Shown: one piece after another, positions 447 to 40,011 of the stretch
Numbering within the stretch: position 1 is the first letter of the stretch
Layout of the letters: every line of letters begins with the position of its first letter
Assembly (NCBI GenBank): GCA_964035575.1
Contig: OZ037838.1
Location: 1,736,001 to 1,800,000 of the forward strand
Origin: Rhynchopus sp. YZ270_cl-10
Taxonomy: Eukaryota
Length of the DNA stretch: 64,000 nucleotides
Reading direction: 5' to 3'
Made by a program: the position numbers and the translations under genes
Notes under the pieces: model-generated
What the model saw: the letters and a program-made list of their open reading frames with translations, nothing else
Database searches by the model: none
What the model was told of the DNA's origin: nothing

Positions 447-1610
447 ATGGATGTGACCTTTGTGCTGGAAGAGTCAGGCGTGACTGCGACAGTGGAGGTG
501 CCGTGCGAGGCGGACGTTGCAGCGGCAAAGGAGGTTGCGTGCACGGCGCTTGCTGTCTCGCCTGCGTCTGTCGAGATGCGCATCGGCACGCAGGTGCTGG
601 AGGGGACGTGCCGTCTGCAGGACACTGCGTTTGATGCAGGGGTGCAGGTTGTGCTTGCCCGCCGCTTTGCCGACATCAAGTGTCCTGCTAAGCTCAGTCT
701 GCCGCCTGGCTTGTCTCTCTTCTCGTTGTCTCCTTGTGGATCGCTCTGTCTCTATTTGTACTTTAATGGTTTCAATCTCGGTGGAGGTTCCAGTTTTGGT
801 GGCGTCGGCGTTGATACAGAAGCCTTCGAGACTGCCTTCGAGTTTGAAATCGAATTCGGTGGGCTTGGTCCAGCTGCCATCTCACGATGCAAGACACACT
901 GCTACATGGCGTTCAGGCGTTGTCTTGCCAAGGTTGCGCTTCCGGGTGGGGAGGTGGTCCGCAAAGTCGACGGCCTCTCGACGTGGGTGTTCGCGTGTGG
1001 CGGTGTTCTTATCTCCCAAGGCAAAGGCGGCGTCTCTGTGTATGACGAAGACCTGACGTTTCTCCTCACTCTCTCACACAAGGGGTGCAACGAGGGGAGC
1101 GACGTGGCACTGTCTGACTGTGGTGGGTGGGTGATCACCTCTTCCGGGAAGGAGAAGAACGCGCGTCTGTGGGATGTGAACACAGGTGAAGCTGTGGCAT
1201 GTGTGCCTGCGGATGGGAGGCGAGTGGCGCTTTCACGGTCTGCCTCTGTCTTTGCTGTGGAGTGCTCTCAGAAAGTGCAGCTCTATGACTGGAGTGGTGC
1301 GGCTCTTGGCAGCTTTGAAGAGGAGCTGTCTCGCGTCTTTGCCGTGCAGTTCACTCCGTGTGGGAAGTACGTCGTTGTTGGGTTTGTGAGTGGTGACATT
1401 GTTCTGGATGATGAGCGCGCCCTACACCAGTATGATGTGGCAACCATGTCCTGTGTGCGTGTGATACCAAATGCCAAGCAAGCATTTGCGATATCGCCGT
1501 GTTCACATGTGGTTTTGTTTGAGTCAGGAGAAAGTGACGACCTTGTGTCACAGCATCTGTACCCCTACTTGAGTGATGTTTCGGATGAAAACAGAGAAGA
1601 GTTGCCCTGA
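447..1610 (+). CDS. Ubiquitin-like domain + WD40-like 7-blade beta-propeller protein (array copy, YLSDVSDE-tail type)
   Basis: ATG of the conserved MDVTFVLEESG; ~72-aa beta-grasp-like pattern ending VQVVLARR; seven blades including SDCGGWVITSS..ARLWDVNTGE, VQLYDWSG and QFTPCGKY. Confidence 0.9.
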   Translation: MDVTFVLEESGVTATVEVPCEADVAAAKEVACTALAVSPASVEMRIGTQVLEGTCRLQDTAFDAGVQVVLARRFADIKCPAKLSLPPGLSLFSLSPCGSLCLYLYFNGFNLGGGSSFGGVGVDTEAFETAFEFEIEFGGLGPAAISRCKTHCYMAFRRCLAKVALPGGEVVRKVDGLSTWVFACGGVLISQGKGGVSVYDEDLTFLLTLSHKGCNEGSDVALSDCGGWVITSSGKEKNARLWDVNTGEAVACVPADGRRVALSRSASVFAVECSQKVQLYDWSGAALGSFEEELSRVFAVQFTPCGKYVVVGFVSGDIVLDDERALHQYDVATMSCVRVIPNAKQAFAISPCSHVVLFESGESDDLVSQHLYPYLSDVSDENREELP

Positions 1611-2128
1611 TGAGCACAACAGCGTGCAGCTCTATGATTGTAGCAGTGCGGCTCTTTGCAGCTTTGATGAAGCATGGGCACGTCTGGATGCGTATCCTCC
1701 TCTCACTCGTACTTCAGGACGCGCGTTTTGGGGGTTTTCGGGACTTTTGGGGTTTGAAACAAATAATGGATGGAAGAAAATGCTGATGGACTGAGCGATC
1801 AACAAACAATGAATCAATAAAGATGGGGGTACTTTAGTTTGATATTTTGAGGATAACGCCCACACCACCCTTTACCCCTCTTCCACTTTTTCTTTCCGTC
1901 TGTCGGTGGAATTGACAACAACATCACAAACACACAAAACAAAACAACGCACACCTCATCTCCTCCTACCCACATCTTCTTTTCTAGACAACAGCTCTCT
2001 GCGTACGACACTCTATGTCGTTCTTGGAGACTCACTTTGCATGTGTCCTGTCGCGATATTCTCCGAAGTGCATGCATCGTAAACTACAACACAAAACACA
2101 GTTACACACAAAACACAACACAACAACC

Positions 2129-3148
2129 ATGGACGTGACCATTCAAAGCTTCGATAAGAAGGACCACGTCATCGAGGTGGGTGTGGACGATACTGTGATG
2201 GACGTGCGTCGCAACGTGGCGTCTGCACTGGGGTTGCACGAAGACAGCTTCAGCATGAGGTTCGGAGGGGAGGTTATGGACGGAGCTGACGTGAGGAACC
2301 TGAGTGCTGGGGACACCATTGTGCTGACGAGTAAGAAGGGCGAGGCTATTGCAACACTTCGTGCATTGGGTGAGAAGGACCTGACGGAGGAGCGGCTGGC
2401 AAATGTGGGGGATCCTCAAGTGGCGTGTTTGCTTCTGCAGGCGGAGGTTGCGAGCGTGATCAAGTTCATGTCAGGAGAGGAGTTCAAGCATCTTGGTATT
2501 ACAAACGTATCTGTTGTGAGTCGCAGTTCGGACAGCACTTACAGTGGTGACAGGGACGTCACGGACAGTAATGAAACACGCGACTTCTCCAGGTTGGGCA
2601 TTGTGCAGGTGATGGAGACAAAGTTTTTTATTAACTGCAACATGTTGACAGCAATGGACCTGTCTGAGGTGACGAATGTCACCACAATACACGATGACTT
2701 TCTTCGTGATTGCACGGGGTTGACGACACTCGACCTATCTGGGTTGACAACTGCGACCACCATTGGCTCGCACTTCTTGTATTGTTGTGCGGCATTAACA
2801 ACAATCAACCTCTCTGGGTTGACAAATGTCACTTCAATTGGTGACAACTTCATGCACTCTTGTGCGGCGATGCACGGACTCGACCTATGTGGGCTCACCA
2901 ATGTCGAAACCATAGGTTCGCACTTCCTGTACAATTGCACGGGGTTAACACGACTCGACCTCTCTTGGTTGGGCTATGTCACTCAGATTGATGAATCATT
3001 TCTTGGGGGCTGCCAAGCAGTCCTCGTACATCGTTCACGACCCGAAAACTACAGCAGCCTCGTTGTGATGAGGCATTGCCCGTACTGTCGTACTCCCCCA
3101 CCCCCTTCACCCCCTTGTCCTTATTTTTTGGAGCCGGGGCTTATATAG
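2129..3148 (+). CDS. Ubiquitin-like domain + leucine-rich-repeat (BspA/LRR_5-like, ~25-aa period) protein, copy 1
   Basis: N-terminus MDVTIQSFDKKDHVIEVGVDDTVMDVRRNVASALGL..LSAGDTIVL has a ubiquitin-like pattern; repeats of the form LTTLDLSGLTNVTSIGDNFMHSCAA follow. Confidence 0.88.
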   Translation: MDVTIQSFDKKDHVIEVGVDDTVMDVRRNVASALGLHEDSFSMRFGGEVMDGADVRNLSAGDTIVLTSKKGEAIATLRALGEKDLTEERLANVGDPQVACLLLQAEVASVIKFMSGEEFKHLGITNVSVVSRSSDSTYSGDRDVTDSNETRDFSRLGIVQVMETKFFINCNMLTAMDLSEVTNVTTIHDDFLRDCTGLTTLDLSGLTTATTIGSHFLYCCAALTTINLSGLTNVTSIGDNFMHSCAAMHGLDLCGLTNVETIGSHFLYNCTGLTRLDLSWLGYVTQIDESFLGGCQAVLVHRSRPENYSSLVVMRHCPYCRTPPPPSPPCPYFLEPGLI

Positions 3149-4180: not shown

Positions 4181-5200
4181 ATGGACGTGACCATTCAAAG
4201 CTTCGATAAGAAGGACCACGTCATCGAGGTGGGTGTGGACGATACTGTGATGGACGTGCGTCGCAACGTGGCGTCTGCACTGGGGTTGCACGAAGACAGC
4301 TTCAGCATGAGGTTCGGAGGGGAGGTTATGGACGGAGCTGACGTGAGGAACCTGAGTGCTGGGGACACCATTGTGCTGACGAGTAAGAAGGGCGAGGCTA
4401 TTGCAACACTTCGTGCATTGGGTGAGAAGGACCTGACGGAGGAGCGGCTGGCAAATGTGGGGGATCCTCAAGTGGCGTGTTTGCTTCTGCAGGCGGAGGT
4501 TGCGAGCGTGATCAAGTTCATGTCAGGAGAGGAGTTCAAGCATCTTGGTATTACAAACGTATCTGTTGTGAGTCGCAGTTCGGACAGCACTTACAGTGGT
4601 TACAGGGACGTCACCGACAGTAATGAAACACGCGACTTCTCCAGGTTGGGCATTGTGCAGGTGATGGAGACAAAGTTTTTTATTAACTGCAACATGTTGA
4701 CAGCAATGGACCTGTCTGAGGTGACGAATGTCACCACAATACACGATGACTTTCTTCGTGATTGCACGGGGTTGACGACACTCGACCTATCTGGGTTGAC
4801 AACTGCGACCACCATTGGCTCGCACTGCTTGTATAATTGTGCGGCGTTAACAACAATCGACCTCTCCGGGTTGACAAATGTCACTTCAATTGGTGACAAC
4901 TTCATGCACTCTTGTTCGGCGATGCACGGACTCGACCTATGTGGGCTCACCAATGTCGAAACCATAGGTTCGCACTTCCTGTACAATTGCACGGGGTTAA
5001 CACGACTCAACCTCTCTTGGTTGGGCTATGTCACTCAGATTGGTGAATCATTTCTTGGGGGCTGCCAAGCAGTCCTCGTACATCGTTCACGACCCGAAAA
5101 CTACAGCAGCGTCGTTGTGACGAGGCATTGCCCGTACTGTCGTACTCCCCCACCCCCTCCGCCCCCTTGTCCTTATTTTTTGGAGCCGGGGCTTATATAG
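4181..5200 (+). CDS. Ubiquitin-like domain + LRR protein, copy 2
   Basis: Same length (1020 nt) as 2129..3148 and nearly identical; about 10 aa differences, all after codon ~140. Confidence 0.88.
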   Translation: MDVTIQSFDKKDHVIEVGVDDTVMDVRRNVASALGLHEDSFSMRFGGEVMDGADVRNLSAGDTIVLTSKKGEAIATLRALGEKDLTEERLANVGDPQVACLLLQAEVASVIKFMSGEEFKHLGITNVSVVSRSSDSTYSGYRDVTDSNETRDFSRLGIVQVMETKFFINCNMLTAMDLSEVTNVTTIHDDFLRDCTGLTTLDLSGLTTATTIGSHCLYNCAALTTIDLSGLTNVTSIGDNFMHSCSAMHGLDLCGLTNVETIGSHFLYNCTGLTRLNLSWLGYVTQIGESFLGGCQAVLVHRSRPENYSSVVVTRHCPYCRTPPPPPPPCPYFLEPGLI

Positions 5201-5753
5201 GGGGGTAAACAGTTTTGCGAGCCCGAATTTTTAACTAAACGTTTTACACTCCGGCTATATTGTATAAGCTCGTAAATGCGTAGTTTGTATTTATACGGGG
5301 TTCCTATTTCGTGAATATTTAAATCTAAAGGTTTTTTTTTAGCGCTGCAAATTTCGCCAAATATTTATTTACACCTCTTCCCGAGTTTTTGTCCGAATAT
5401 ACGGTTACAGTCCCACCCTTTACACCTTTTTTCCCCTTTGCAGAAAAAGGAACGTTATGCAACTCATCCTTTGTGTCTACACTCATACAACCATGTTTTC
5501 AAAGAGAAGCAATATTTTCAATATAAAAGAAGCACAACAAAACACGAAACCACACACCTTTGTTTCCCCTCTGTACCTCCCCGCTCTCCTCTTTTGCAAG
5601 AACGCTCCTTCGCTAATGACGCGATCTTCTTTGCTGGACAACAGCTCTCTGCGTACGACACTCTATGTCGTTCTTGGAGACTCACTTTTCATGTGTCATG
5701 CATGTAAACTACAACACAAAACACAGTTATACACAAAACACAACACAACAACC

Positions 5754-6827: not shown

Positions 6828-7988
6828 ATGGATGTGACCTTTGTGCTGGAAGAGTCAGGCGTGACTGCGACAGTGGAGGTGCCGTGCGAGGCGGACGCTG
6901 CAGCGGCAAAGGAGGTTGCGTGCACGGCGCTTGCTGTCTCGCCTGCGTCTGTCGAGATGCGCATCGGCACGCAGGTGCTGGAGGGGACGTGCCGTCTGCA
7001 GGACACTGCGTTTGATTCAGGGGTGCAGGTTGTGCTTGCCCGCCGCTTTGCCGACATCAAGTGTCCTGCTGTGCACAGTCCGGAGGATAACTTTCCTAAC
7101 TTGCGTAACTCCTCGTTGTCTCCTTGTGGAACGCTCTGTCTCTATTTCCACTCGAAAGATTACCATACCAGTGCAGTCGTCGGCTTTGACACAGAAACCT
7201 TCGAGACTGCCTTCAAGTTTGAAATCGTACTTGGTGCGCGAGGTCCAGCTGCCATCTCACGGTGCAAGACACACTGCTACATGGCGTTCAGGCATTATCT
7301 TGCCAAGGTTGCGCTTCCGAGTGGGGAGGTGGTCCGTAAGGTTTACTGCCTCTCGACGTCGGTGTTTGCGTGTGGCGGTGTTGTTGTGTTGAAGGGCAAT
7401 GACGGCGTCTCTGTGTATGACGAAGACCTGACGTTGCTCCGCACTCTCTCGCACGAAGGGTGCGGCGAGGGGAGCGACGTGGCACTGTCTGACTGTGGTG
7501 GGTGGGTGATCACGTCCTCCTTCACGGAGCAAAATGCACGTCTGTGGGATGTGAACACAGGTGAAGCATGTGTTCCTGCGGATGGGTTGGGTACAGTGGC
7601 GCTTTCACGGTGTGCCTCTGTCTTTGCTGTGGGGTGCTCTGACAAAGTGCAGCTCTATGACTGGAGTGGTGCGGCTCTTGGCAGCTTTGAAAGGGAGGAG
7701 TCTCGCGTCTTTGCCGTGCAGTTCACTCCGTGTGGGAAGTACGTCGTTGTTGGCTTTGTGAGTGGTGACTTTGAAGTGTGTTCTGAAGAGTGCACCCTAC
7801 ACCAGTATGATGTGGCGACCATGTCCTGTGTGCATGTGATACCAAATGCCGACCAAGCTACGTTTGCGATATCGCCGTGTTCACGTGTGGTTTTGTTTGA
7901 GTCAGGAGAAGGTGCCAACCTTGTGTCACAGCATCTGTACCCCTACTTGAGTGATGTTTCGGATGAAAACAGAGAAGAGTTGCCCTGA
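6828..7988 (+). CDS. UBL + WD40 beta-propeller protein (YLSDVSDENREELP tail)
   Basis: MDVTFVLEESG start (an extra in-frame ATG lies at 6825); full blade set. Confidence 0.9.
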   Translation: MDVTFVLEESGVTATVEVPCEADAAAAKEVACTALAVSPASVEMRIGTQVLEGTCRLQDTAFDSGVQVVLARRFADIKCPAVHSPEDNFPNLRNSSLSPCGTLCLYFHSKDYHTSAVVGFDTETFETAFKFEIVLGARGPAAISRCKTHCYMAFRHYLAKVALPSGEVVRKVYCLSTSVFACGGVVVLKGNDGVSVYDEDLTLLRTLSHEGCGEGSDVALSDCGGWVITSSFTEQNARLWDVNTGEACVPADGLGTVALSRCASVFAVGCSDKVQLYDWSGAALGSFEREESRVFAVQFTPCGKYVVVGFVSGDFEVCSEECTLHQYDVATMSCVHVIPNADQATFAISPCSRVVLFESGEGANLVSQHLYPYLSDVSDENREELP

Positions 7989-8402: not shown

Positions 8403-9509
8403 ATGGATGTGACCTTTGTGCTGGAAGAGTCAGGCGTGACTGCGACAGTGGAGGTGCCGTGCGAGGCGGACGTTGCAGCGGCAAAGGAGGTTGCGTGCAC
8501 GGCGCTTGCTGTCTCGCCTGCGTCTGTCGAGATGCGCATCGGCACGCAGGTGCTGGAGGGGACGTGCCGTCTGCAGGACACTGCGTTTGGTGCAGGGGTG
8601 CAGGTTGTGCTTGCCTGTCCTCGCTTGGCCGACATCAAGTGTCCTGCTGAGTACAATAGACCAGGGCAGTCAGACCATTTTTCACTGTCGCGTTGTGGCA
8701 CGCTCTGTGTCTACTGTGTTCCTGATCATTTCGGGTTTGTTCGTAGACAGCAGGTTTGTGGCTTCGACACAGAAACCTTCAACACTGCTTTCGATTTCAC
8801 AATGGACCATTGTACGAGTAGTGCGCCTGCCATCTCACGGTGCAAGAGACGCTGCTACATGGCGTTCAGGCATTGTCTTCTCGAAGTTGCACTTCCTGGT
8901 GGGGAGGTGGTCCGCAAAGTCGACGGTTCCTGTGCGTCAGTGTCCGCGTGTGGTGGTGTTGTTGTCTCCCAAGTCTTTAGCAGCGTGTACGTGTATGACG
9001 AAGACCTGACGTTGCTCCGCACTCTCTCGCACGAAGGGTGCATGAAGGTGGCAGTGTCTGACTGTGGTGGGTGGGTTATCACCTCCTCCGACACGGAGCA
9101 GAACGTACGTCTGTGGGATGTGAACACAGGTGTTGCTGTTGCACGCGTACCTGCGGTTGGGACTCACGTGGCGCTTTCACGATCTGCCTCTGTCTTTGCT
9201 GTGGTGCGCTATCCCAAAGTGCAGCTCTACGACTGGAGTGGTGCGGCTCTTCGCAGCTTTGAAGAGGAGCAGTATGCAATCGTTGGCATGCAGTTCACTC
9301 CGTGTGGGAAGTACCTTGTGGTTGAGTTTTTGTGTGATGATGAAAACGAAATTCGTGCACTCCACCAGTATGATGTGGCGACCATGTCCTGTGTGCATGT
9401 GATACAGGATGTCTTCGATGCGTTTGCGATATCGCCGTGTTCACGTGTGGTTATGTTTCGTTCATCAGAAAGTACTGCCCTCCTGACCAGACATCTGTAC
9501 CCCTACTGA
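8403..9509 (+). CDS. UBL + WD40 beta-propeller protein (HLYPY* tail)
   Basis: Intact 368-aa paralogue. Confidence 0.9.
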   Translation: MDVTFVLEESGVTATVEVPCEADVAAAKEVACTALAVSPASVEMRIGTQVLEGTCRLQDTAFGAGVQVVLACPRLADIKCPAEYNRPGQSDHFSLSRCGTLCVYCVPDHFGFVRRQQVCGFDTETFNTAFDFTMDHCTSSAPAISRCKRRCYMAFRHCLLEVALPGGEVVRKVDGSCASVSACGGVVVSQVFSSVYVYDEDLTLLRTLSHEGCMKVAVSDCGGWVITSSDTEQNVRLWDVNTGVAVARVPAVGTHVALSRSASVFAVVRYPKVQLYDWSGAALRSFEEEQYAIVGMQFTPCGKYLVVEFLCDDENEIRALHQYDVATMSCVHVIQDVFDAFAISPCSRVVMFRSSESTALLTRHLYPY

Positions 9510-15173: not shown

Positions 15174-16301
15174 ATGGATGTGACCTTTGTGCTGGAAGAG
15201 TCAGGCGTGACTGCGACAGTGGAGGTGCCGTGCGAGGCGGATGTTGCAGCGGCAAAGGAGGTTGCGTGCACGGCGCTTGCTGTCTCGCCTGCGTCTGTCG
15301 AGATGCGCATCGGCACGCAGGTGCTGGAGGGGACGTGCCGTCTGCAGGACACTGCGTTTGGTGCAGGGGTGCAGGTTGTGCTTGCCCGCTGCTTTGCCGA
15401 CATCAAGTGTCCTGCTGAGTACAGTGTAGAGGCGCCACCTGGAACGCAGCGGATGAATATGAATAGTTTAACGCTGTCTTTTTGTGGAGCACTCTGCCTC
15501 TTTACACAGAAGACACGCTATGTCACTGGCCTCGATACAGAAACCTTCAGCCCTGCCTTCAGGTTCAAAGTGGACTGTGGGATATATGGTGCGCCTGCCA
15601 TCTCACGGTGCAAGACACGCTGCTACCTGGCGTGTGGGGATGACTTACGCATGGTTGCACTTCCGGGTGGGGAGGTGCTCCGCAAGGTTGACCCCTCGTT
15701 CCAAGTGTTCGCGTGTGGCGGTGTTGTTGTCTCCCGTGGCGAAGGAAGCGTCTCTGTGTATGACGAAGACCTGACGTTGCTCCGCACTCTCTCTCACAAG
15801 GGCTGCGCCCAGTGGTGTGGGAGAGTGGCAGTGTCGGACTGTGGTGGGTGGGTGATCACCTCCTCCCTCAGTGAGAACAACGCACGTCTGTGGGATGTGA
15901 ACACAGATCAAGCTGTGGCATGTGTGCCTGCGGATGGGGAGTGCGTGGCCCTTTCACGGTCTGCCTCTGTCTTTGCTGTGGTGTGCTCTAACGAAGTACA
16001 GCTCTATGACTGGAGTGGCGCGGCTCTTCGCGGCTTTGATCAGGAGGAGTCTCGTGTCTGTGCCGTGCAGTTCAGTCCGTGTGGGAAGTACGTCGTTGTT
16101 TGCTTTGAGAGTGGTGAAGTATTTTGTGAAGAGTACACTCTGCACCAGTATGATATGGCGACCATGTCCTGTGTGCGTGTGATACAAGACAGCAATGGTG
16201 TATTTTCTATATCGCCATGTTCACGTGTGGTTGTGTTCAAGGCAGCAGGAGGTGACGCAGGAAGTAACGTCCTTGTCACAAGGCATCTGTACCCCTACTG
16301 A
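15174..16301 (+). CDS. UBL + WD40 beta-propeller protein
   Basis: Intact 375-aa paralogue. Confidence 0.9.
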   Translation: MDVTFVLEESGVTATVEVPCEADVAAAKEVACTALAVSPASVEMRIGTQVLEGTCRLQDTAFGAGVQVVLARCFADIKCPAEYSVEAPPGTQRMNMNSLTLSFCGALCLFTQKTRYVTGLDTETFSPAFRFKVDCGIYGAPAISRCKTRCYLACGDDLRMVALPGGEVLRKVDPSFQVFACGGVVVSRGEGSVSVYDEDLTLLRTLSHKGCAQWCGRVAVSDCGGWVITSSLSENNARLWDVNTDQAVACVPADGECVALSRSASVFAVVCSNEVQLYDWSGAALRGFDQEESRVCAVQFSPCGKYVVVCFESGEVFCEEYTLHQYDMATMSCVRVIQDSNGVFSISPCSRVVVFKAAGGDAGSNVLVTRHLYPY

Positions 16302-22886: not shown

Positions 22887-23993
22887 ATGGATGTGACCTT
22901 TGTGCTAGAAGAGTCAGGCGTGACTGCGACAGTGGAGGTGCCGTGCGAGGCGGACGTTGCAGCGGCAAAGGAGGTTGCGTGCACGGCGCTTGCTGTCTCG
23001 CCTGCGTCTGTCGAGATGCGCATCGGCACGCAGGTGCTGGAGGGGACGTGCCGTCTGCAGGACACTGCTTTTGATGCAGGGGTGCAGGTTGTGCTTGCCT
23101 GCCGCTTTGCCAATATCAAGTGTCCTGCTGAGTACGCTGTAACACCGGATGCGGAACACTTATCGCTGTCGGGTTGTGGAACGCTCTGCATTTACCGTGA
23201 CAACAGACTTATTTGTGGCTTCGACACCGAAACCTTCAACACTGCCTTCGAGTTCACACTGGACTCTGTGTGCGACGTGCCTGCAATCTCGGCTTGCAGG
23301 ACACGCTGCTACCTGGTGTGCAAGGACGATGACATTTTACACGAGGTTGCGCTTCCTAGTGGGGAGGTGGTCCGCAATGTAGAAGGCGTCGCGTACTCGG
23401 TGTTCGCGTGTGGCGGTGTTGTTGTCTCGAAGGGCGAAGGTGGCGTCTCTGTGTATGACGAAGACCTGACGTTGATCCGCACTCTCTCGCACGAAGAGTG
23501 CAGGGAGGTGGCAGTGTCTGACTGTGGTGGGTGGGTGATCACCTCCTCCTACAGTGAGAACAACGCACGTCTGTGGGATGTGAACACAGGTGAAGCTGTG
23601 GCATGTGTGCCTGTATCAAAGCGTTGTCGTGTTGTCGCGCTTTCACGGTCTGCCTCTGTCTTTGCTGTGGTGGGGGTGCGCAAAAGTGTGCACCTCTATG
23701 ACTGGAGTGGTGCGGCTCTTCGCAGTGTTGCTGTGGGTGAGAATATTGACGGCATGCAGTTCACCCCATGTGGGAAGTACCTTGTCGTCAATTTAGAATT
23801 CGATTATTGGGCTACTGATAGCAGCGATACGTACGAGCTTCGCCAGTATAATGTTGCGAACATGTCCTGTGTGCTCAGGATTGAGAATGTTGAGAACCCA
23901 TCGTTTGCGATATCGCCATGTTCACGTGTGGTTGTGTGTCAGGAAGGCTCCTCCATTGTCACCAGACATCTGTACCCATACAACAGTGAGTGA
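22887..23993 (+). CDS. UBL + WD40 beta-propeller protein
   Basis: Intact paralogue. Confidence 0.9.
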   Translation: MDVTFVLEESGVTATVEVPCEADVAAAKEVACTALAVSPASVEMRIGTQVLEGTCRLQDTAFDAGVQVVLACRFANIKCPAEYAVTPDAEHLSLSGCGTLCIYRDNRLICGFDTETFNTAFEFTLDSVCDVPAISACRTRCYLVCKDDDILHEVALPSGEVVRNVEGVAYSVFACGGVVVSKGEGGVSVYDEDLTLIRTLSHEECREVAVSDCGGWVITSSYSENNARLWDVNTGEAVACVPVSKRCRVVALSRSASVFAVVGVRKSVHLYDWSGAALRSVAVGENIDGMQFTPCGKYLVVNLEFDYWATDSSDTYELRQYNVANMSCVLRIENVENPSFAISPCSRVVVCQEGSSIVTRHLYPYNSE

Positions 23994-24014
23994 TGTTTTT
24001 TTTCGTTAGTAAGA

Positions 24015-25335: not shown

Positions 25336-26454
25336 ATGGATGTGACCTTTGTGCTGGAAGAGTCAGGCGTGACTGCGACAGTGGAGGTGCCGTGCGAGGC
25401 GGACGTTGCAGCGGCAAAGGAGGTTGCGTGCACGGTGCTTGCTGTCTCGCCTGCGTCTGTCGAGATGCGCATCGGCACGCAGGTGCTGGAGGGGACGTGC
25501 CGTCTGCAGGACACTGCGTTTGATGCAGGGGTGCAGGTTGTGCTTGCCCGTCCTCGTTTTGCCGACATCAAGTGTCCTGGCGGGTACAATGCGAAAGAGG
25601 GGGCGCAGGAAGTGTCGCTGTCGCGTTGTGGAACGCTCTGCATGTATCGTGACAACAGGCTCATTTGTGGCTTCGACACCGAAACCTTCAACACTGCCTT
25701 CGAGTTCACACTGGCTTCTTCTGTGTACCGCGGAGCCATCTCGCAGTGCAAGACACGCTGCTACCTGGTGTGCAGGGAAGGTATACATGTGTTTGCGCTT
25801 CCGGGTGGTGAGGTGCTCCGAAAAGTCAACGCCGTCTCAGAGTCTGTGTCCGCGTGTAGCGGTGTTGTTGTCTCCCAAGGCACAGACGGCGTCTCTGTGT
25901 ATGACGAAGACCTGACGTTGCTCCGCTCTCTCACACACGAAGGGTGCACTGGCATCGCAGTGTCGGACTGTGGTGGGTGGGTGATCACCTCCTCCGACAC
26001 GGAGAAGAACGCACGTCTGTGGGATGTGAACACAGGTGAATCTGTGGCATGTGTGCCTGTATACAGCAAGACAGATACAGCAAGACGGTGTAGTGTTGTT
26101 GCACTTTCACGGTCTGCCTCTGTCTTTGCTGTGGCGAGCTCTGGCGGCGTGCAGCTCTATGACTGGAGTGGTGCGGCTCTTCGCGTTGTTGTTGTGGGTG
26201 CGCATGTTGTGGGCATGCAGTTCACCCCATGTGGGAAGTACTTTGTAGTCCACTTATTATTAAATTTATGTGTGACTGATCATAGTTTGAAATTCGAGCT
26301 TCGCCAGTATGATGTTGCGAACATGTCCTGTGTGCTCAGGATTGAGAATGTTGAGAACCCATTGTTTGCGATATCGCCATGTTCACGTGTGGTTGTGTGT
26401 CAGGAAGGCTCCTCCATTGTCACCAGACATCTGTCCCCACACAACAGTGAGTGA
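25336..26454 (+). CDS. UBL + WD40 beta-propeller protein
   Basis: Intact paralogue with an inserted loop YSKTDTARR. Confidence 0.9.
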   Translation: MDVTFVLEESGVTATVEVPCEADVAAAKEVACTVLAVSPASVEMRIGTQVLEGTCRLQDTAFDAGVQVVLARPRFADIKCPGGYNAKEGAQEVSLSRCGTLCMYRDNRLICGFDTETFNTAFEFTLASSVYRGAISQCKTRCYLVCREGIHVFALPGGEVLRKVNAVSESVSACSGVVVSQGTDGVSVYDEDLTLLRSLTHEGCTGIAVSDCGGWVITSSDTEKNARLWDVNTGESVACVPVYSKTDTARRCSVVALSRSASVFAVASSGGVQLYDWSGAALRVVVVGAHVVGMQFTPCGKYFVVHLLLNLCVTDHSLKFELRQYDVANMSCVLRIENVENPLFAISPCSRVVVCQEGSSIVTRHLSPHNSE

Positions 26455-28140: not shown

Positions 28141-29298
28141 ATGGATGCGACCTTTGTGCTGGAAGAGTCAGGCGTGACTGCGACAGTGGAGGTGCCGTGC
28201 GAGGCGGACGTTGCAGCGGCAAAGGAGGTTGCGTGCACGGCGCTTGCTGTCTCGCCTGCGTCTGTCGAGATGCGCATCGGCACGCAGGTGCTGGAGGAGA
28301 CGTGCCGTCTGCAGGACACTGCGTTTGATGCAGGGGTGCAGGTTGTGCTTGCCCGCCGCTTTGCCAACATCAAGTGTCCTGCTGCGCACAGTCTGCCGGA
28401 AGACATGTGCAGCTTGCATAATTTCTCGTTGTCTTCTTGTGGATCGCTCTGTGTCTATTACTACTCGGAAGATTACATTTACCATACCAGTGCCGTCGTC
28501 GGCTTTGACACAGAAACCTTCGAGACTGCCTTCAAGTTTGAAGTCGAATTCGGTGGGCTTGGTCCAGCTGCCATCTCACGGTGCAAGACACACTGCTACA
28601 TGGCGTTCAGGCATTGTCTTGCCAAGGTTGCGCTTCCGGGTGGGGAGGTGGTCCGCAAAGTCGACGGCCTCTCGACGTGGGTGTTCGCGTGTGGCGGTGT
28701 TGTTGTCTCCCAAGGCAAAGACGGCGTCTCTGTGTATGACGAAGACCTGACGTTGCTCCGCACTCTCTCACACGAAGGGTGCGCTGTCATTGCAGTGTCT
28801 GACTGTGGTGGATGGGTGATCACCTCCTCCAACACGGAGCAGAACGCACGTCTGTGGGATGTGAACACAGGTGAAGCCGTTGCATGTGTGCCTGCGGATG
28901 GGAGACACGTAGCCCTTTCACGGTCTGCCTCTGTCTTTGCTGTGGAGTGCTCTCAGAAAATGCAGCTCTATGACTGGAGTGGTGCGGCTCTTCGTAGCTT
29001 TGAAGAGGAGGAGTCTCGCGTCTTTGCCGTGCAGTTCACTCCGTGTGGGAAGTACGTCGTTGTTGGGTTTGAGAGTGGTGACTTTGTTCTGAATGCTTAT
29101 TTAGAGCACACCCTACACCAGTATGACGTGGCGACCATGTCCTGTGTGCATGTGATACCAAATGCCGACCAAGCTACGTTTGCGATATCGCCGTGTTCAC
29201 GTGTCGTTTTGTTTGAGTCAAGAATCAGTGACAAGCTTGTGTCACAGCATCTCTACCCCTACTTGAGTGATGTTTCGGATGAAGACAGAGAAGAGTAG
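28141..29298 (+). CDS. UBL + WD40 beta-propeller protein (YLSDVSDE tail)
   Basis: Intact paralogue, starts MDATFVLEESG. Confidence 0.9.
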   Translation: MDATFVLEESGVTATVEVPCEADVAAAKEVACTALAVSPASVEMRIGTQVLEETCRLQDTAFDAGVQVVLARRFANIKCPAAHSLPEDMCSLHNFSLSSCGSLCVYYYSEDYIYHTSAVVGFDTETFETAFKFEVEFGGLGPAAISRCKTHCYMAFRHCLAKVALPGGEVVRKVDGLSTWVFACGGVVVSQGKDGVSVYDEDLTLLRTLSHEGCAVIAVSDCGGWVITSSNTEQNARLWDVNTGEAVACVPADGRHVALSRSASVFAVECSQKMQLYDWSGAALRSFEEEESRVFAVQFTPCGKYVVVGFESGDFVLNAYLEHTLHQYDVATMSCVHVIPNADQATFAISPCSRVVLFESRISDKLVSQHLYPYLSDVSDEDREE

Positions 29299-29792: not shown

Positions 29793-30884
29793 ATGGATGT
29801 GACCTTTGTGCTGGAAGAATCAGGCGTGACTGCGACAGTGGAGGTGCCGTGCGAGGCGGACGTTGCAGCGGCAAAGGAGGTTGCGTGCACGGCGCTTGCT
29901 GTCTCGCCTGCGTCTGTCGAGATGCGCATCGGCACGCAGGTGCTGGAGGGGACGTGCCGTCTGCAGGACACTGCGTTTGATGCAGGGGTGCAGGTTGTGC
30001 TTGCCCGCCGCTTTGCCAACATCAAGTGTCCTGCTGCCTACCCTTCCGAGTCTATCCGAGGAAGGTTCGTTCTGTCGTGTTGTGGAGCGCTGTGCCTCTA
30101 CTCTCCCTGCGAGAATGGGGCTGTTGTCGGCTTCGACACAGAAACCTTCAACACTGCCTTCGAGTTCACACTGGCCTCTTCTGTGTCCAGCGCACCTGCC
30201 ATCTCGCAGTGCAAGACACGCTGCTACCTGGCCTGTATGGAAGGCCTTCTCGAGGTTGCGCTTCCGGGTGGGGAGGTGCTCCACAAAGTCGACGGCGTCT
30301 CGAGAGCAGTGTTCGCGTGTGGCGGTGTTGTTGTCTCGAAGAGCACTGACGGCGTCTCTGTGTATGACGAAGACCTGACGTTGCTCCGCTCTCTCTCGCA
30401 CGAAGGGTGCACTGGCATTACAGTGTCTGACTGTGGTGGGTGGGTGATCACCTCCTCCAAGAACGAGAAGAACGCACGTCTGTGGGATGTGAACAGAGGT
30501 GAAGCTGTGGCATGTGTGCCTGTATCAAGGCCTGCTGTCGCGCTTTCACGGTGTGCCTCTGTCTTTGCTGTGGTGGGGCTGAACAGAAGCGTGGAGCTCT
30601 ATGACTGGAGTGGTGCTCTTCGCGGTGTTGTTGTGGGTGTTAATGTTAAAGGCATGCAGTTCACCCCATGTGGGAAGTACTTTGTGGGAAGCTTTTTGTC
30701 CTATGATTTGATGACTAAATACGAGCTTCGCCAGTACAATGTTGCGAACATGTCCTGTGTGCTCAGGATTGAGAATGTTAGTAGCTCATCGTTTGCGATA
30801 TCGCCATGTTCACGTGTGGTTGTGTGTCAGGAAGGCCCCTCCATTGTCACCAGACATCTGTACCCACACAGCAGTCTGTCTTAA
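29793..30884 (+). CDS. UBL + WD40 beta-propeller protein
   Basis: Intact paralogue. Confidence 0.9.
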   Translation: MDVTFVLEESGVTATVEVPCEADVAAAKEVACTALAVSPASVEMRIGTQVLEGTCRLQDTAFDAGVQVVLARRFANIKCPAAYPSESIRGRFVLSCCGALCLYSPCENGAVVGFDTETFNTAFEFTLASSVSSAPAISQCKTRCYLACMEGLLEVALPGGEVLHKVDGVSRAVFACGGVVVSKSTDGVSVYDEDLTLLRSLSHEGCTGITVSDCGGWVITSSKNEKNARLWDVNRGEAVACVPVSRPAVALSRCASVFAVVGLNRSVELYDWSGALRGVVVGVNVKGMQFTPCGKYFVGSFLSYDLMTKYELRQYNVANMSCVLRIENVSSSSFAISPCSRVVVCQEGPSIVTRHLYPHSSLS

Positions 30885-31278: not shown

Positions 31279-32364
31279 ATGGATGTGACCTTTGTGCTGG
31301 AAGAGTCAGGCATGACTGCGACAGTGGAGGTGCCGTGCGAGGCGGACGTTGCAGCGGCAAAGGAGGTTGCGTGCACGGCGCTTGCTGTCTCGCCTGCGTC
31401 TGTCGAGATGCGCATCGGCACGCAGGTGCTGGAGGGGACGTGCCGTCTGCAGGACACTGCGTTTGATGCAGGGGTGCAGGTTGTGCTTGCCCGCCGCTTT
31501 GCCAACATCAAGTGTCCTGCTGAGTACAGTGCATCACCGGATACGCAACACTTATCGCTGTCGGGTTGTGGAACGCTCTGCATTTATGGGGACAACAGTG
31601 GGGTCATTTGTGGCTTCGACACCGAAACCTTCAACACTTCCTTCGAGTTCACACTGCCCTCTTCTGTGTCCAGCGCACCTGCCATCTCGCAGTGCAAGAC
31701 ACACTGCTACCTGGCGTGTGAGGACGATGATAGTTTATGCGAGGTTGCGCTTCCGGGCGGGGAGGTGCTCCGCAAAGTCGACGGCGTCTCGTACTCGGTG
31801 TTTGCGTGTGGCGGTGTTGTTGTCTCACAGGACCATAAGGGCGTCTCTGTGTATGACGAAGACCTGACGTTGCTCCGCACTCTCTCACACGAAGGATGCA
31901 GGAAGGTGGCAGTGTCTGACTGTGGTGGGTGGGTGATGACCTCCTCCCTCAGTGAGAAGAAGGCACGTCTGTGGGATGTGAACACAGGTGAAACTGTGGC
32001 ATGTGTGCCTGTATCAAAGCGTTGTGGTGTTGTCGCGCTCTCACGATGTGACTCTGTCTTTGCTGTGGTGGGGGTGAACAAAAGCGTGCTCCTCTATGAC
32101 TGGAGTGGTGCGGCTCTTCGCAGTGGTTTTCTGGGTGCGGGCATTAAGGGCATGCAGTTCACCCCATGTGGGAAGTACCTTGTGGTCAACTTCTGGTTCA
32201 GGGACGAGCTTCGCCAGTACAATGTTGCGAACATGTCCTGTGTGCTCAGGGTTGAGAATGTTAGCAAGTCATCGTTTGCGATATCGCCATGTTCACGTGT
32301 GGTGGTGTGTCAGGAAGGCTCCTCCATTGTCACCAGACACCTGTCCCCACACAACAGTGAGTGA
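31279..32364 (+). CDS. UBL + WD40 beta-propeller protein
   Basis: Intact paralogue; a point change creates an alternative in-frame ATG at 31255. Confidence 0.9.
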   Translation: MDVTFVLEESGMTATVEVPCEADVAAAKEVACTALAVSPASVEMRIGTQVLEGTCRLQDTAFDAGVQVVLARRFANIKCPAEYSASPDTQHLSLSGCGTLCIYGDNSGVICGFDTETFNTSFEFTLPSSVSSAPAISQCKTHCYLACEDDDSLCEVALPGGEVLRKVDGVSYSVFACGGVVVSQDHKGVSVYDEDLTLLRTLSHEGCRKVAVSDCGGWVMTSSLSEKKARLWDVNTGETVACVPVSKRCGVVALSRCDSVFAVVGVNKSVLLYDWSGAALRSGFLGAGIKGMQFTPCGKYLVVNFWFRDELRQYNVANMSCVLRVENVSKSSFAISPCSRVVVCQEGSSIVTRHLSPHNSE

Positions 32365-34004: not shown

Positions 34005-35164
34005 ATGGATGTGACCTTTGTGCTAGAAGAGTCAGGCGTGACTGCGACAGTGGAGGTGCCGTGCGAGGCGGACGTTGCAGCGGCAAAGGAGGTTGCGTGC
34101 ACGGCGCTTGCTGTCTCGCCTGCGTCTGTCGAGATGCGCATCGGCACGCAGGTGCTGGAGGGGACGTGCCGTCTGCAGGACACTGCGTTTGATGCAGGGG
34201 TGCAGGTTGTGCTTTCCCGCCCTCGCTTTGCCGACATCAAGTGTCCTGCTAAACACAGTGTGCCAGACAACTTGTGCAACTTCTCGCTGTCTCCTTGTGG
34301 AACGCTCTGTCTCTATTTCCACTTGGAACGTTCCAATCCCAGTGGTGGTATCGGTAGTACCGGTGTCGGCTTTGACACAGAAACCTTCGAGACTGCCTTT
34401 AAGTTTGAAACCAAATGTCGTGGGCTTGGTCGAGCTGCCATCTCACGGTGCAAGACACACTGCTACTTGGCGTTCAGGCGTTGTCTTGCCAAGGTTGCGC
34501 TTCCGGGTGGGGAGGTGCTCTGCAAAGTCGACGGCAACTTTCACTCAGTGTTCACGTGTGGTGTTGTTGTTGTCTCCCAAGGTGAAGACGGCGTCTCTGT
34601 GTATGACGAAGACCTGACGTTGCTCCGCTCTCTCTCTCGCACAAAGGGTGCATGAAGGTGGCAGTGTCTGACTGTGGTGGGTGGGTGATCACCGCCTCCC
34701 TCAGTGAGAACAACGCACGTCTGTGGGATGTGAACACGGGTGAAGCTGTGGCATGTGTGCCTGCGGATGAGAGGTTCGTGGCGCTTTCACGATGTGCCTC
34801 TGTCTTTGCTGTGGTGTGCTCTGAAAAAGTGCAGCTCTACGACTGGAGTGGTGCGGCTCTTGGCAGCTTTGAAGAGGAGGAGTCTCGCGTCTTTGCCGTG
34901 CAGTTCACTCCGTGTGGGAAGTACGTCGTTATTGGCTTTGTGAGTGGTGACTTTGTTCTGGATTCTGAAGAGCACACCCTACACCAGTATGATGTGGCGA
35001 CCATGTCCTGTGTGCATGTGATACCAAATGCCGACCAAGCTACGTTTGCGATATCGCCGTGTTCACGTGTCGTTTTGTTTGAGTCAGGAGATAGTGACGA
35101 CCTTGTGTCACAGCATCTCTACCCCTACTTGAGTGATGTTTCGGAAGAAAACAGAGAAGAGTAG
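34005..35164 (+). pseudogene. UBL + WD40 paralogue with a +2 frameshift
   Basis: An extra CT unit in ctccgctctctctctcgc (~34627-34639) splits the ORFs 33927..34655 and 34652..35164; otherwise full length. Confidence 0.8.
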
Positions 35165-35542: not shown

Positions 35543-36649
35543 ATGGATGTGACCTTTGTGCTGGAAGAGTCAGGCGTGACTGCGACAGTGGAGGTGCCGT
35601 GCGAGGCGGACGTTGCAGCGGCAAAGGAGGTTGCGTGCACGGCGCTTGCTGTCTCGCCTGCGTCTGTCGAGATGCGCATCGGCACGCAGGTGCTGGAGGG
35701 GACGTGCCGTCTGCAGGACACTGCGTTTGATGCAGGGGTGCAGATTGTGCTTGCCCGCCGCACTGCCGACATCAAGTGTCCTGCTGAGTACAGTCTGCAG
35801 AAGGTGACAGACAATTGCTCGCTGTCGGGTTGTGGAACGCTCTGCATTTACCGTGACAACAGTGGCCGCGTTAGTGGCTTCGACACCGAAACCTTCAACA
35901 CTTCCTTCGAGTTCACACTAGCCTCTTCTGTTGTCAACGCGCCTGCCATCTCGCAGTGCAAGACACGCTGCTACCTGGTGCGCGAGGAAGGCTTACGCGT
36001 GGTTGCGCTTCCGAGTGGGGAGGTGATCCGCAACGTCGCTGGCCTCTCGATGTCAGTGTTCGCGTGTGGCGGTGTTGTTGTCTTGCAAGTCCTGGGCGGC
36101 GTCTCTGTGTATGACGAAGACCTGACGTTGCTTCGCACTCTCTCTCACGAAGGGTGCGCTGTCATTGCAGTGTCGGACTGTGGTGGGTGGGTGATCACCT
36201 CATCTTGTGTGCAGAGAGACGCACGTCTGTGGGATGTGAACACAGGTGAAGCTCTTGCATGTGTGCCTGTATCAAGACGTTGTCGTGTTGTCGCGCTTTC
36301 ACGGTGTGCCTCTGTCTTTGCTGTGGTGGGGCTGAACAGAAGCGTGGAGCTCTATGACTGGAGTGGTGCGGCTCTTCGCACTATCGTTGTGGGTGAGAAT
36401 GTTGTGGGCATGCAGTTCACCCCATGTGGGAAGTACCTCGTCGTCAACTTAGCATTAGCTTATTGTATGACTGATTCTAGTTTGAAATACGAGCTTCGCC
36501 AGTATGATGTTGCGAACATGTCCTGTGTGCTCAGGATTGAGAATGTGAGCAGCCCATCGCTTGCGATATCGCCATGTTCACGTGTGGTTGTGTGTCAGGA
36601 AGGCTCCTCCATTGTCACCAGACATCTGTACCCATACAACAGTGAGTGA
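35543..36649 (+). CDS. UBL + WD40 beta-propeller protein
   Basis: Intact 368-aa paralogue. Confidence 0.9.
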   Translation: MDVTFVLEESGVTATVEVPCEADVAAAKEVACTALAVSPASVEMRIGTQVLEGTCRLQDTAFDAGVQIVLARRTADIKCPAEYSLQKVTDNCSLSGCGTLCIYRDNSGRVSGFDTETFNTSFEFTLASSVVNAPAISQCKTRCYLVREEGLRVVALPSGEVIRNVAGLSMSVFACGGVVVLQVLGGVSVYDEDLTLLRTLSHEGCAVIAVSDCGGWVITSSCVQRDARLWDVNTGEALACVPVSRRCRVVALSRCASVFAVVGLNRSVELYDWSGAALRTIVVGENVVGMQFTPCGKYLVVNLALAYCMTDSSLKYELRQYDVANMSCVLRIENVSSPSLAISPCSRVVVCQEGSSIVTRHLYPYNSE

Positions 36650-36931: not shown

Positions 36932-38039
36932 ATGGATGTGACCTTTGTGCTGGAAGAGTCAGGCGTGACTGCGACAGTGGAGGTGCCGTGCGAGGCGGAT
37001 GTTGCAGCGGCAAAGGAGGTTGCGTGCACGGCGCTTGCTGTCTCGCCTGCGTCTGTCGAGATGCGCATCGGCACGCAGGTGCTGGAGGAGACGTGCCGTC
37101 TGCAGGACACTGCGTTTGGTGCAGGGGTGCAGGTTGTGCTTGCCCGCCGCTTTGCCAACATCAAGTGTCCTGCTGAGTACAGTGCAGATCGTAAGTTGTG
37201 TAACTTATTGTCACTCTCGCGTTGTGGAACGCTTTGTGTCTTCCGTGACGGTTTGGGACTTTTTGTGGCTTCGACACAGAAACCTTCGAGACTGCCTTCC
37301 GATTCGGCGCTGACAGTTGGTTAAGTGCATGCGGTGAGCCTGCCATCTCGCAGTGCATGACACGCTGCTACCTGGCATGCGAGGAAGGCTTACACGAGGT
37401 TGCGCTTCCGGGTCGGGAGGTGCTCCGCAAGTCGACGGCTTGTCGAAGTCGGTATTCGCGTGTGGTGGTGTTGTTGTCTCCCAAGGTGAAGACGGCGTCT
37501 CTGTGTATGACGAAGACCTGACGTTGCTCCGCTCTCTCTCGCACGAAGGGTGCACAGACATGGCAGTGTCTGACTGTGGTGGGTGGGTGATCACCTCCTC
37601 CAAAGTGGAGGACAAAGCACGTCTGTGGGATGCGCACGCAGGTGAAGCTGTTACATGTGTGCCTGCGGCGGGCGTATGCAAAGTCGCGCTTTCACGGTGT
37701 GCCTCCGTCTTTGCTGTGGTGGGCCGTGGCAAAGTGCAGCTCTATGACTGGAGTGGTGCGGCTCTTCGCAGCGTTGTTGTGGGTGCGAGCATTGACGGCG
37801 TGCAGTTCACCCCATGTGGGAAGTACTTTGTCGTCATCTTATTATTAGCCTATTGTATGACTGATCAGAGTGCAAAATACGAGCTTCGCCAGTATGATGT
37901 TGCGAACATGTCCTGTGTGCTCAGGATTGAGAATATTAGTAGCTCATCGTTTGCGATATCGCCATGTTCACGTGTGGTGGTGTGTCAGGAAGGCTCCTCC
38001 ATTGTCACCAGACATCTGTCCCCACACAACAGTGGGTGA
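36932..38039 (+). pseudogene. UBL + WD40 paralogue with two frameshifts
   Basis: The frame changes at ~37250-37263 and again at ~37430 (cgcaagtc versus cgcaaagtc in paralogues). Confidence 0.8.
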
Positions 38040-38898
38040 TGTTTTTTTTCCCGCGTTGGTGGGTGAGGGGAGATAAAACAATTATCCCCCCTTTTTCCCC
38101 TTTTGTTTTTGTGCTGAGTATGTAATACATCTGTTGGATATGAAGGGCTCTTTATCCAAACGGCAAGTGGATGCGTAATAATTTTATTGTATACAAACAT
38201 ACGAAGCGGTACGCGTACGGTTTGTTAGGAAATAATACAAACCGAAATGATTGGGCTCTTTCGGATTGAATGATTTGAATAGTGTGTGTGTGTGTTCGGA
38301 AATAGATACTGTCTCTTTTCTGTCTTGTTTAATGTTCATTGTTTCCCTTTCATTGCCCTTTGCTTGCTTCCCGACTCCAATTCAATCAATACTCACAGAG
38401 GGGGGGCCAAAAATACAATTAGCGTTTCTCGTTTTTCAAAAAAAAAATAATAAAAGAAGAAAGAAAGTAAGCACGCATATCCGTCCCTCTGTGTATGATG
38501 CACTTGTGAAGCCTAATAGTGCACTGTTGTTGCTTTTTATCGCACAAGTATACCTGTTAATACAATTACAGCACACAGATGCAGCAAAATGGCTCGCTTT
38601 TGCGGGTGGCGAAATGTCTTCTCTTTGTTCTTCGACTCAGCTGCTTTAAGCGCGAGTTGTTTTACGGATCCAGGAGCAGGAGCTAGAGTATTTGCGTTGC
38701 ACCCTCGACCTACTAGCCTGTGAGGGAATTCATTTTGAGACATTTTGAGGATAACGACCACACCACCCTTTACCTCTCTTTTTCACTTTTGCTTTGTTAA
38801 AACCTCTCCTGTTGCTGAAACCATCACAAACACACAAAACAAAACAACCCACACCTCACCTCCTCCCAACAGAGGTGGAACAAGAAGAAGACAAAACA

Positions 38899-40011
38899 AT
38901 GGATGTGACCTTTGTGCTGGAAGAGTCAGGCGTGACTGCGACAGTGGAGGTGCCGTGCGAGGCGAACGTTGCAGCGGCAAAGGAGGTTGCGTGCACGGCG
39001 CTTGCTGTCTCGCCTGCGTCTGTCGAGATGCGCATCGGCACGCAGGTGCTGGAGGGGACGTGCCGTCTGCAGGACACTGCGTTTGATGCAGGGGTGCAGG
39101 TTGTGCTTGCCCGCCCTCGCTTTGCCGACATCAAGTGTCCTGCTGAGTACAGTCTGCCGGAAGACTTGTGTAGCTTCTCCCTGTCTCCTTGTGGAACGCT
39201 TTGTGTCTTCCGTGACGACTTGTCTGGGATTTTTTGTGGCTTCAACACAGAAACCTTCGACACTTTCTTCCGATTCGACGATGACAGGTGGTTAAGTGCA
39301 TGCAGCGCGCCTGCCATTTCGGCTTGCAAGACACGCTGCTACCTGCCGTGCGAGGAAGCCTTACACGAGGTTTCCCTTCCGGGTGGGGAGGTGCTCCGCA
39401 AAGTCGAAGGCGTCTCGCACTCAGTGTTCGCGTGTGGCGGTGTTGTTGTCTCCCAAGGCAAAGACGGCGTCTCTGTGTATGACGAAGACCTGACGTTGCT
39501 CCGCACTCTCTCGCACGAAGGGTGTGTGCGCTTGGCAGTGTCTAACTGTGGTGGGTGGGTGATCACCTCCTCTAGAGTGGAGGACAAAGCACGTCTGTGG
39601 GATGTGAACACAGGTGAAGCTGTTACATGTGTGCTTGCGGCGGGCGAACGCAAAGCGGCGCTTTCACGGTCTGCCTCTGTCTTTGCTGTGGCGAGCTGTG
39701 GCAGCGTGCAGCTCTACGACTGGAGTGGTGCGGCTCTTCGCAGCGTTGTTGTGGGCGCGAGCATTGACGGCATGCAGTTCACCCCATGTGGGAAGTACCT
39801 CGTCGTCAACCTATTTTTAGCTTTTTGTATGACTGATTATAGTTTTAAATACGAGCTTCGCCAGTATGATGTTGCGAACATGTCCTGTGTGCTCAGGATT
39901 GAGAATATTAGCAAGTCATCGTTTGCGATATCGCCATGTTCACGTGTGGTTGTGTGTCAGGAAGGCTCCTCCATTGTCACCAGACATCTGTACCCACACA
40001 ACAGTGAGTGA
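38899..40011 (+). CDS. UBL + WD40 beta-propeller protein (last array copy)
   Basis: Intact paralogue. Confidence 0.9.
   Translation: MDVTFVLEESGVTATVEVPCEANVAAAKEVACTALAVSPASVEMRIGTQVLEGTCRLQDTAFDAGVQVVLARPRFADIKCPAEYSLPEDLCSFSLSPCGTLCVFRDDLSGIFCGFNTETFDTFFRFDDDRWLSACSAPAISACKTRCYLPCEEALHEVSLPGGEVLRKVEGVSHSVFACGGVVVSQGKDGVSVYDEDLTLLRTLSHEGCVRLAVSNCGGWVITSSRVEDKARLWDVNTGEAVTCVLAAGERKAALSRSASVFAVASCGSVQLYDWSGAALRSVVVGASIDGMQFTPCGKYLVVNLFLAFCMTDYSFKYELRQYDVANMSCVLRIENISKSSFAISPCSRVVVCQEGSSIVTRHLYPHNSE

Follow-up and report, generated by a model that had tools for sequence, protein, structure and literature searches.

The question raised by this locus is why one end of a repeated gene has stayed almost identical in every copy, silent sites included, while the rest of the gene has diverged. 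The window analyzed here is a whole stretch of 64,000 nucleotides (nt) from Rhynchopus sp. YZ270_cl-10 (assembly GCA_964035575.1, contig OZ037838.1, positions 1,736,001 to 1,800,000 of the forward strand), and it carries 16 tandem copies, all on the + strand, of a gene that encodes an N-terminal ubiquitin-like (UBL) domain followed by a WD40 propeller (UBL-WD40). The block is the first 213 nt counted from the ATG (nt 1-213), and copies are named by ATG position, for example, c6828. Both ends of the block were found 16 times on the + strand over the span 447-39111, and 100 shuffles gave 0. An earlier note on this DNA had counted 16 full-length copies; the number stands, and full length holds for the 14 whose open reading frames (ORFs) are intact (361-387 amino acids, aa), the other two (c34005 and c36932) being frameshifted. 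Judging from the patterns among the copies, we believe that the paralogues probably undergo gene conversion or unequal crossing-over often enough to keep the block uniform, as a case of concerted evolution of a single domain. The comparison at the DNA level covers the 16 copies of the window, and the genome-wide and subgroup evidence is at the protein level.

The copies each depart from the block consensus at 0-3 nt, with polymorphism at 15 of the 213 sites. Pairs of copies diverged on average by 1.2% within the block, compared with 20.8% (minimum 6.4%) across the 812 gap-free columns downstream. When the 14 intact copies were aligned by codon, 4-fold diversity was 0.006 in UBL codons 1-71, with zero in 46 of 48 columns, whereas it was 0.158 in the propeller columns with an invariant amino acid, with zero in 27 of 57 (Mann-Whitney, p=4e-8). 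The synonymous divergences (dS, Nei-Gojobori) of the UBL, the conserved propeller columns and the whole remainder were 0.012, 0.215 and 0.367, respectively. The near-invariance of the 5' ~215 nt, synonymous sites included, was the central claim of the earlier note and is borne out by these values. They refute a simple recent duplication, which would have left dS just as low in the propeller strands. For comparison, a plain recent duplication lies in the same window: two genes of a second family, with a UBL and a leucine-rich repeat (LRR) domain, are 94-100% identical evenly over about 1.2 kb. This even identity indicates that a plain recent duplication looks unlike the pattern of the UBL-WD40 block. 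Within the block, dN/dS (dN, nonsynonymous divergence) was 0.80, and the distinct variants were 11 nonsynonymous and 4 synonymous, so the few block variants look young and neutral rather than like survivors of filtering at the protein level. Two 15-codon windows in the propeller also had lowish 4-fold diversity (0.036 and 0.073); the block is thus the longest and lowest such region, and not the sole one.

The limits of the block were located in 30-column windows. Mean pairwise identity was 0.93-1.00 from -16 to +195, stayed at about 0.90 until +249, and was 0.40 thereafter; in the propeller part it ranged from 0.19 to 0.95. An abrupt divergence just after the residues IKCPA had been described, and the drop to about 40% is indeed found there, whereas the edge itself falls in two steps, with nt 214-246 (up to IKCPA) already at about 90%. 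Upstream of the gene, identity was 0.66-0.76 over about 60 nt and lower farther out. The 5' edge is sharp: c6828 is unrelated to the other copies upstream as far as the ATG, and contigs from other sequencing runs lose their resemblance to the window about 8 nt upstream of the ATG. The 5' leaders (-75 to -1) fall into discrete classes, one 75-nt leader being common to most copies and a variant of it being common to the copies at 15174, 21102 and 35543; between classes, homology begins a few nt from the ATG. The unrelated leader of the copy at 6828 adds a second ATG (MMDV...), a form that is frequent genome-wide.

Because the uniform stretch is also the most repeated stretch of the gene, where polishing errors concentrate, an assembly or polishing artefact has to be weighed, in which reads from hundreds of copies flattened the block to the majority sequence. 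The two frameshifted copies could likewise be assembly errors. However, 15 polymorphic block sites remain, with both private and shared variants, and the block is covered by independently built contigs from four runs of four studies; among the best-supported differences listed, 3 are in the block (15242, 15361 and 15387) and 27 are at 15462-16217. The same N-terminus also occurs in predicted proteins on at least 13 contigs. With this evidence, we regard an artefact as highly improbable.

A very recent expansion from one gene would also leave the block identical, by descent, if the propeller had diverged rapidly through a locally elevated mutation rate or targeted diversification. The propeller does have a high dS as well as a high dN (0.37 and 0.25 in the whole remainder downstream of the block), and hypervariable loops with indels recur in it every 30-60 nt. 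The non-coding flanks, however, match the divergence of the propeller and not the cleanliness of the block: in the closest pairs of copies, the flanks were 77-97% identical where alignable, the propellers 80-94% and the block 98-99.5%. Since the flanks are as diverged as the propellers, the block is the outlier, not the propeller. Such an expansion would also need a step in rate of about 20-30 fold over a boundary of some 30 nt, and it sits poorly with the reassortment of block variants, their uncoupling from the propeller and the mosaic propeller segments described below. We therefore consider a recent expansion quite improbable.

The evidence for exchange between copies comes from the block, from its relationship to the propeller, and from the propeller itself. 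In the block, all four combinations of variants (four gametes) were found for the site pairs nt69/188, 158/188 and 69/158. Block relationships are uncoupled from propeller relationships: distances between copies in the two parts were uncorrelated (Spearman -0.04, p=0.66), and on a FastTree tree of 118 propellers the common UBL variants were no better placed than shuffled labels. For example, UBL position 63 (G in 25 of 118) needed 29 changes against 29.7 for shuffled labels, with 198 of 500 shuffles needing as few, and UBL position 24 needed 13 against 14.5. UBL position 23 gave a weak signal (20 changes vs 23.9; 5/500), and the contig of origin does carry signal on the same tree (27 changes vs 37.2; 0/500). 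The common UBL variants occur in 12-21% of copies, at dispersed places on the propeller tree. The comparison of UBL and propeller relationships that the earlier note had called for thus gave the result expected of exchange.

The propeller segments are mosaic between copies as well. The incompatibility of neighbouring sites was 0.428, compared with 0.482 +/- 0.012 after permutation (0/1000 as low), and significant identical runs (p<0.0005) were found in 17 of 120 copy pairs. Taking the longest perfectly identical tract of each pair, the median length was 126 nt for the block and 45 nt for the propeller; as the block holds the longest uninterrupted identity, it should be the best substrate for further exchange, and its proposed role as a homology anchor for recombination is plausible on these sequence patterns. 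Among the significant identical runs is a near-identical 3' module, at about nt 1035-1120 (LRQY[DN]VANMSCVLR...SPCSRVVVCQEG[SP]SIV), which was observed in eight intact copies (18714, 21102, 22887, 25336, 29793, 31279, 35543 and 38899) and in the broken copy at 36932; outside the module, these copies differ from one another by 12-17%.

The two broken copies have retained the block. Together they carry 1 private block change in 426 nt, whereas about 8 would be expected from the rate of private changes in their own downstream parts. The broken copy at 34005..35164 (+) loses its frame after 216 aa, and its block has 2 differences, 1 of them private. The broken copy at 36932..38039 (+) has at least 2 frameshifts (at about nt 320 and 498), and its block has 3 differences, all shared and 0 private.

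At the protein level, the block recurs at other loci. At E<=0.001, 415 proteins from a single source were matched, giving a family of at least 415 members, and all 415 are probably from one assembly. The best 120 of the 415 were 65-100% identical and lay on at least 13 contigs. Compared with the 71-residue consensus, 95 of these 120 differed at 0-2 residues, 18 at 3-8 and 5 at 10-12, and 2 were N-terminally cut, so proteins encoded elsewhere do share the block, which is the point that the earlier note had asked to have checked. In the main group, protein identity was 0.96 in the UBL and 0.66 in the propeller. A subgroup consisting of four members on another contig and the member P0065 had propellers as near to the main group (0.63-0.65) as main-group propellers are to one another, and yet its UBL matched the consensus at just 0.83-0.86; a common set of 10-12 UBL changes is carried by the four on the other contig. 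In more distant members, UBL identity was 0.80, 0.65 and 0.40, falling alongside propeller identity. The separate UBL version of the subgroup and the falling identity in distant members indicate that the UBL domain is not intrinsically frozen.

Only 28 clusters matched the block among 1.84 billion representative proteins, and all were of the same build or fragments. Contigs with the family were present in four independent runs (5666, 2974, 88 and 30 contigs). The ratio of block to flank contig depth was in the hundreds; this summed depth is not a copy number and was not used as such. In contigs from the runs labelled as other organisms (X4, X6 and X7), the block was nearly unchanged. For example, a 222-nt X7 contig had 3 substitutions, all at sites where the fourth copy of the array (c15174) departs from the window consensus or where the copies vary. 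In two X7 contigs, the match covers the leader and the opening 28 coding nt (window 15163-15201) and is followed by about 142 nt of unrelated sequence; they could represent another gene type with the same start or a chimaera. No relatives were found in JGI metagenome contigs or GTDB genome contigs (85 and 40 pattern matches, respectively, none confirmed), and the ESM Atlas gave nothing but generic WD40 clusters with scores of at most 0.84.

The strongest competitor is that purifying selection acts on the block's nucleotides as such, the block being a functional RNA or DNA element whose silent changes are purged copy by copy. It could be a small-RNA target controlling the expression of the copies, it could regulate translation, or it could be a fixed signal for recombination. 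Silent and replacement sites are equally invariant, both edges are sharp with the 5' edge at the start codon, and the near-unchanged block in X4, X6 and X7 points the same way. Base composition does too. At the third codon positions of nt 1-216, G was 0.52 and C 0.18, whereas G was 29% downstream; third-position GC was 0.70 in the block and 0.58 downstream, and only G was raised. For the same residues with the codon usage of the propeller, 25.9 +/- 3.6 third-position G would be expected, and 37 of 72 were observed (p about 0.002). GC-biased conversion was considered as the source of this composition, but the excess is in G only and C is not raised, so there is no clean signature of it.

Against constraint on the nucleotides, the block does not fold unusually well: its fold z was -0.88 (34 of 200 shuffles were as stable), compared with -1.36 for a propeller stretch of equal length, and the window gave no Rfam match (0). 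No alternative frame of the block is unusually open either, as the fraction of synonymous recodings with as few stops was 0.13-0.77. Variants at 12-21% of copies that are scattered on the propeller tree fit better with spread by exchange, and the 10-12 residue changes in the block of the subgroup and the retention of the block in two frameshifted copies also speak against it. Of the two mechanisms offered by the earlier note, recombination is indirectly supported by the four-gamete pairs, the absent correlation, the scatter of labels and the subgroup, whereas the RNA-level constraint is not, given the fold and Rfam results. We regard constraint on the nucleotides as unlikely to be the explanation, and it may act in addition to conversion.

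A second-frame ORF (158-180 aa) that begins about 70 nt into the gene is present in 10 of the 16 copies (for example, 517-1056, 8473-9009 and 28211-28750) and encodes an Arg-, Leu- and Cys-rich sequence. Dual coding was rejected as the cause of the frozen block, since the other frames are no more open than synonymous recodings, and the second-frame ORF is probably a by-product of base composition.

We propose the following course of events for concerted evolution by conversion. Exchange between copies would occur along the whole gene. In the UBL, nothing would uphold diversity, and conversion together with purifying selection on the protein would drive every site, the silent ones included, to one sequence. 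In the propeller, two causes, singly or together, would let diversity persist: selection may keep the hypervariable loops different, and these loops may cut the homology into tracts too short for efficient conversion. The long identical block would then reinforce its own homogenization in a self-reinforcing loop, and the proteins would form a repertoire in which variable binders are mounted on an unvarying UBL handle.

Several points weigh against this explanation. Every argument for it rests on patterns among paralogues, and no conversion event was seen directly. DNA was compared only among the 16 copies of the window, and the genome-wide and subgroup comparisons are of proteins. The subgroup is a clade on the propeller tree (1 change), so its own UBL version could reflect descent alone, with strong constraint thereafter. 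Mosaicism blurs the propeller tree itself and so weakens the test based on the scatter of labels. The excess of third-position G in the block is not predicted by conversion alone. Finally, if the runs labelled as other organisms come from distinct species, their near-unchanged block would favour constraint on the nucleotides.

The encoded proteins were examined by structure prediction and profile searches. When diverged relatives were included in the modelling, residues 1-85 gave a ubiquitin beta-grasp fold (predicted local distance difference test score, pLDDT, 78), with strands at 2-7, 13-17, 42-46 and 67-72 and a helix at 24-35. In Foldseek searches of the PDB, this model gave 255 matches at E<=0.001, and ubiquitin, the parkin UBL and ISG15 were matched over 70-74 columns with template modelling (TM) scores of 0.72-0.89 and a root-mean-square deviation (rmsd) of 1.3-1.9 A. 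Residues 1-81 gave no match to the Pfam ubiquitin family (PF00240), even at E<=10. The UBL runs straight into ...VQVVLARRFADIKCPA... and the propeller, and no terminal Gly-Gly is exposed for conjugation, which indicates a built-in UBL domain rather than a conjugatable modifier. As the N-terminus is the first UBL strand and there is no N-terminal signal sequence, the UBL-WD40 proteins are predicted to be cytosolic.

The AlphaFold2 model of the copy at 15174 is a seven-bladed WD40 propeller with pLDDT >90 over residues of about 100-370, and Foldseek matched it to G-beta and WDR5 (E about 1e-16, TM 0.6-0.73). The propeller is below the Pfam gathering scores, with 22 bits against 27 for PF00400 and 23-31 bits against 84-305 for the propeller-domain models. 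Among 90 family members, conserved loops of the propeller (entropy 0.05-0.7 bits) strictly alternate with hypervariable ones (1.5-3.4 bits, with indels). In WD40 propellers, the B-C and D-A loops form the top face, which is usually the ligand-binding side. In the match to the WD40 profile, 'SDCGG' falls on the A-B loop and 'ARLWD' on strand C, and with the established topology this identifies the hypervariable loops as the B-C and D-A loops; their position on the top face thus follows from topology and not from coordinates. In the variable columns, dN/dS was 1.04, with a saturated dS (0.80) and an unreliable alignment, and because the ratio rests on these we make no claim of positive selection on the loops.

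A UBL joined to another module and a constant part joined to a variable one are both familiar arrangements. In Rad23, Dsk2, Ddi1 and parkin, an N-terminal non-conjugatable UBL precedes a binding or catalytic module. UBL-WD40 proteins are built alike, and their UBL model matches the parkin UBL and ubiquitin at the rmsd given above; they differ in that they have no UBA or RING, their partner module is a WD40 propeller, and the sequence similarity of their UBL is too low for Pfam. A constant part beside a diverse recognition part is found in the non-binding exons of MHC class I, the conserved 3' end of Giardia VSP genes and the C-terminus and flanks of trypanosome VSG genes, and the zebrafish NLR family is reportedly another of these constant-plus-variable gene families. 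In all of them, a diverse recognition part is joined to a homogenized or constant one, which can supply the homology needed for exchange. Those families, however, encode surface or secreted antigens, receptors or NLRs, whereas the UBL-WD40 proteins appear to be cytosolic.

The nearest described case is the NWD/HNWD family of Podospora anserina, which includes het-d and het-e, with the roles of the parts reversed in UBL-WD40. As far as the published account describes it, this family has 10 members, WD repeats are exchanged between loci and evolve in concert, and four positions per WD repeat are hypervariable, the variability being on the protein-interaction face (PMC1805685). On that account, the two families are alike in being paralogous, in using WD40 as the variable recognition part beside a constant rest of the protein, and in exchanging sequence between loci. 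They are unlike in that the WD repeats of Podospora are homogenized and shuffled as units, whereas here the N-terminal UBL is homogenized and the propeller has diverged. UBL-WD40 also differs from the family as there described in having no NACHT or HET domain, no internal DNA repeats in the coding sequence and at least 415 members instead of 10; for the NACHT domain, the family searches of the window proteins gave no match.

Neither a description of the UBL-WD40 family nor a UBL serving as the constant part was found in the literature searched, and the gene family appears to be undescribed and without named relatives. The process, concerted evolution limited to a constant domain, is already known, and what appears to be undescribed is this very large family. 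A step in silent-site rate of about 18-30 fold across about 30 nt in hundreds of genes is an unusually clean case of it, and a family of this size with such a step is well suited to measuring the limits of conversion tracts. The pairing of an unvarying ubiquitin-fold handle with a hypervariable WD40 face, beside UBL-LRR genes of like design, suggests that this unicellular eukaryote has a modular recognition system. We tentatively speculate, as a doubtful possibility, that the proteins form a germline-encoded intracellular recognition repertoire, in which the top faces of hundreds of propellers would bind different targets, the UBL would deliver the cargo to the proteasome or ubiquitin receptors, the block would serve as the anchor for shuffling propeller cassettes among the genes, and the UBL-LRR proteins would be a parallel.

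The intact UBL-WD40 genes, all on the + strand and each beginning at its ATG, are as follows. The first copy (447..1610, 387 aa) has its block at 447-659 with 0 differences from the consensus, the second (6828..7988, 386 aa) at 6828-7040 with 2 differences, and the third (8403..9509, 368 aa) at 8403-8615. The fourth copy (15174..16301, 375 aa; block 15174-15386) was used for the structure model and the contig comparison. It is followed by the fifth (16742..17830, 362 aa) and by the sixth (18714..19817, 367 aa), whose block equals the consensus and whose residues 1-85 were used for the UBL-only model. The seventh to twelfth copies are at 21102..22187 (361 aa), 22887..23993 (368 aa), 25336..26454 (372 aa), 28141..29298 (385 aa), 29793..30884 (363 aa) and 31279..32364 (361 aa), respectively. 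The two broken copies, at 34005 and 36932, are the thirteenth and fifteenth; the fourteenth is at 35543..36649 (368 aa) and the sixteenth at 38899..40011 (370 aa; block 38899-39111).

The array is interrupted by genes of the second family, in which a different N-terminal UBL is followed by a BspA-type LRR domain. The pair used above as the plain-duplication control comprises the gene at 2129..3148 (+), assigned by profile and family, and its second copy at 4181..5200 (+); a truncated UBL-LRR gene lies at about 5750-5993. The UBL-LRR family has at least 174 members from the same source, many with a precomputed PF00240 match, and the N-terminus of the UBL-LRR protein scored 22.1 bits against PF00240 (cut-off 25.4). 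Like UBL-WD40, it has an N-terminal UBL followed by a repeat domain, an MDVT start and a place in the same cluster, and over 38 aa its UBL shares 29% identity with that of UBL-WD40 (E 1e-5). Unlike UBL-WD40, the UBL-LRR family is not frozen: in 40 of 116 members sampled, identity was 0.60 in the UBL and 0.50 in the LRR, so that of the two families only UBL-WD40 has a frozen UBL. A third build with the same repeat type is found at 10707-12677, which encodes a 656-aa protein with two N-terminal B-box-like zinc fingers followed by BspA-type LRRs.

Over the whole window (1-64000), all ORFs with a family assignment are on the + strand without interruption, and pyrimidine-rich tracts followed by AG lie ahead of the 5' leaders, a layout that we take to resemble the polycistronic gene arrays known from Euglenozoa. 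No tandem repeats were found inside the coding sequence of any UBL-WD40 gene. Between genes, a 117-nt unit is repeated 2.4 times with 98% identity at 32841-33115, and several 16-nt arrays lie between gene copies, at 13581-13614, 14234-14296 and 16500-16561.

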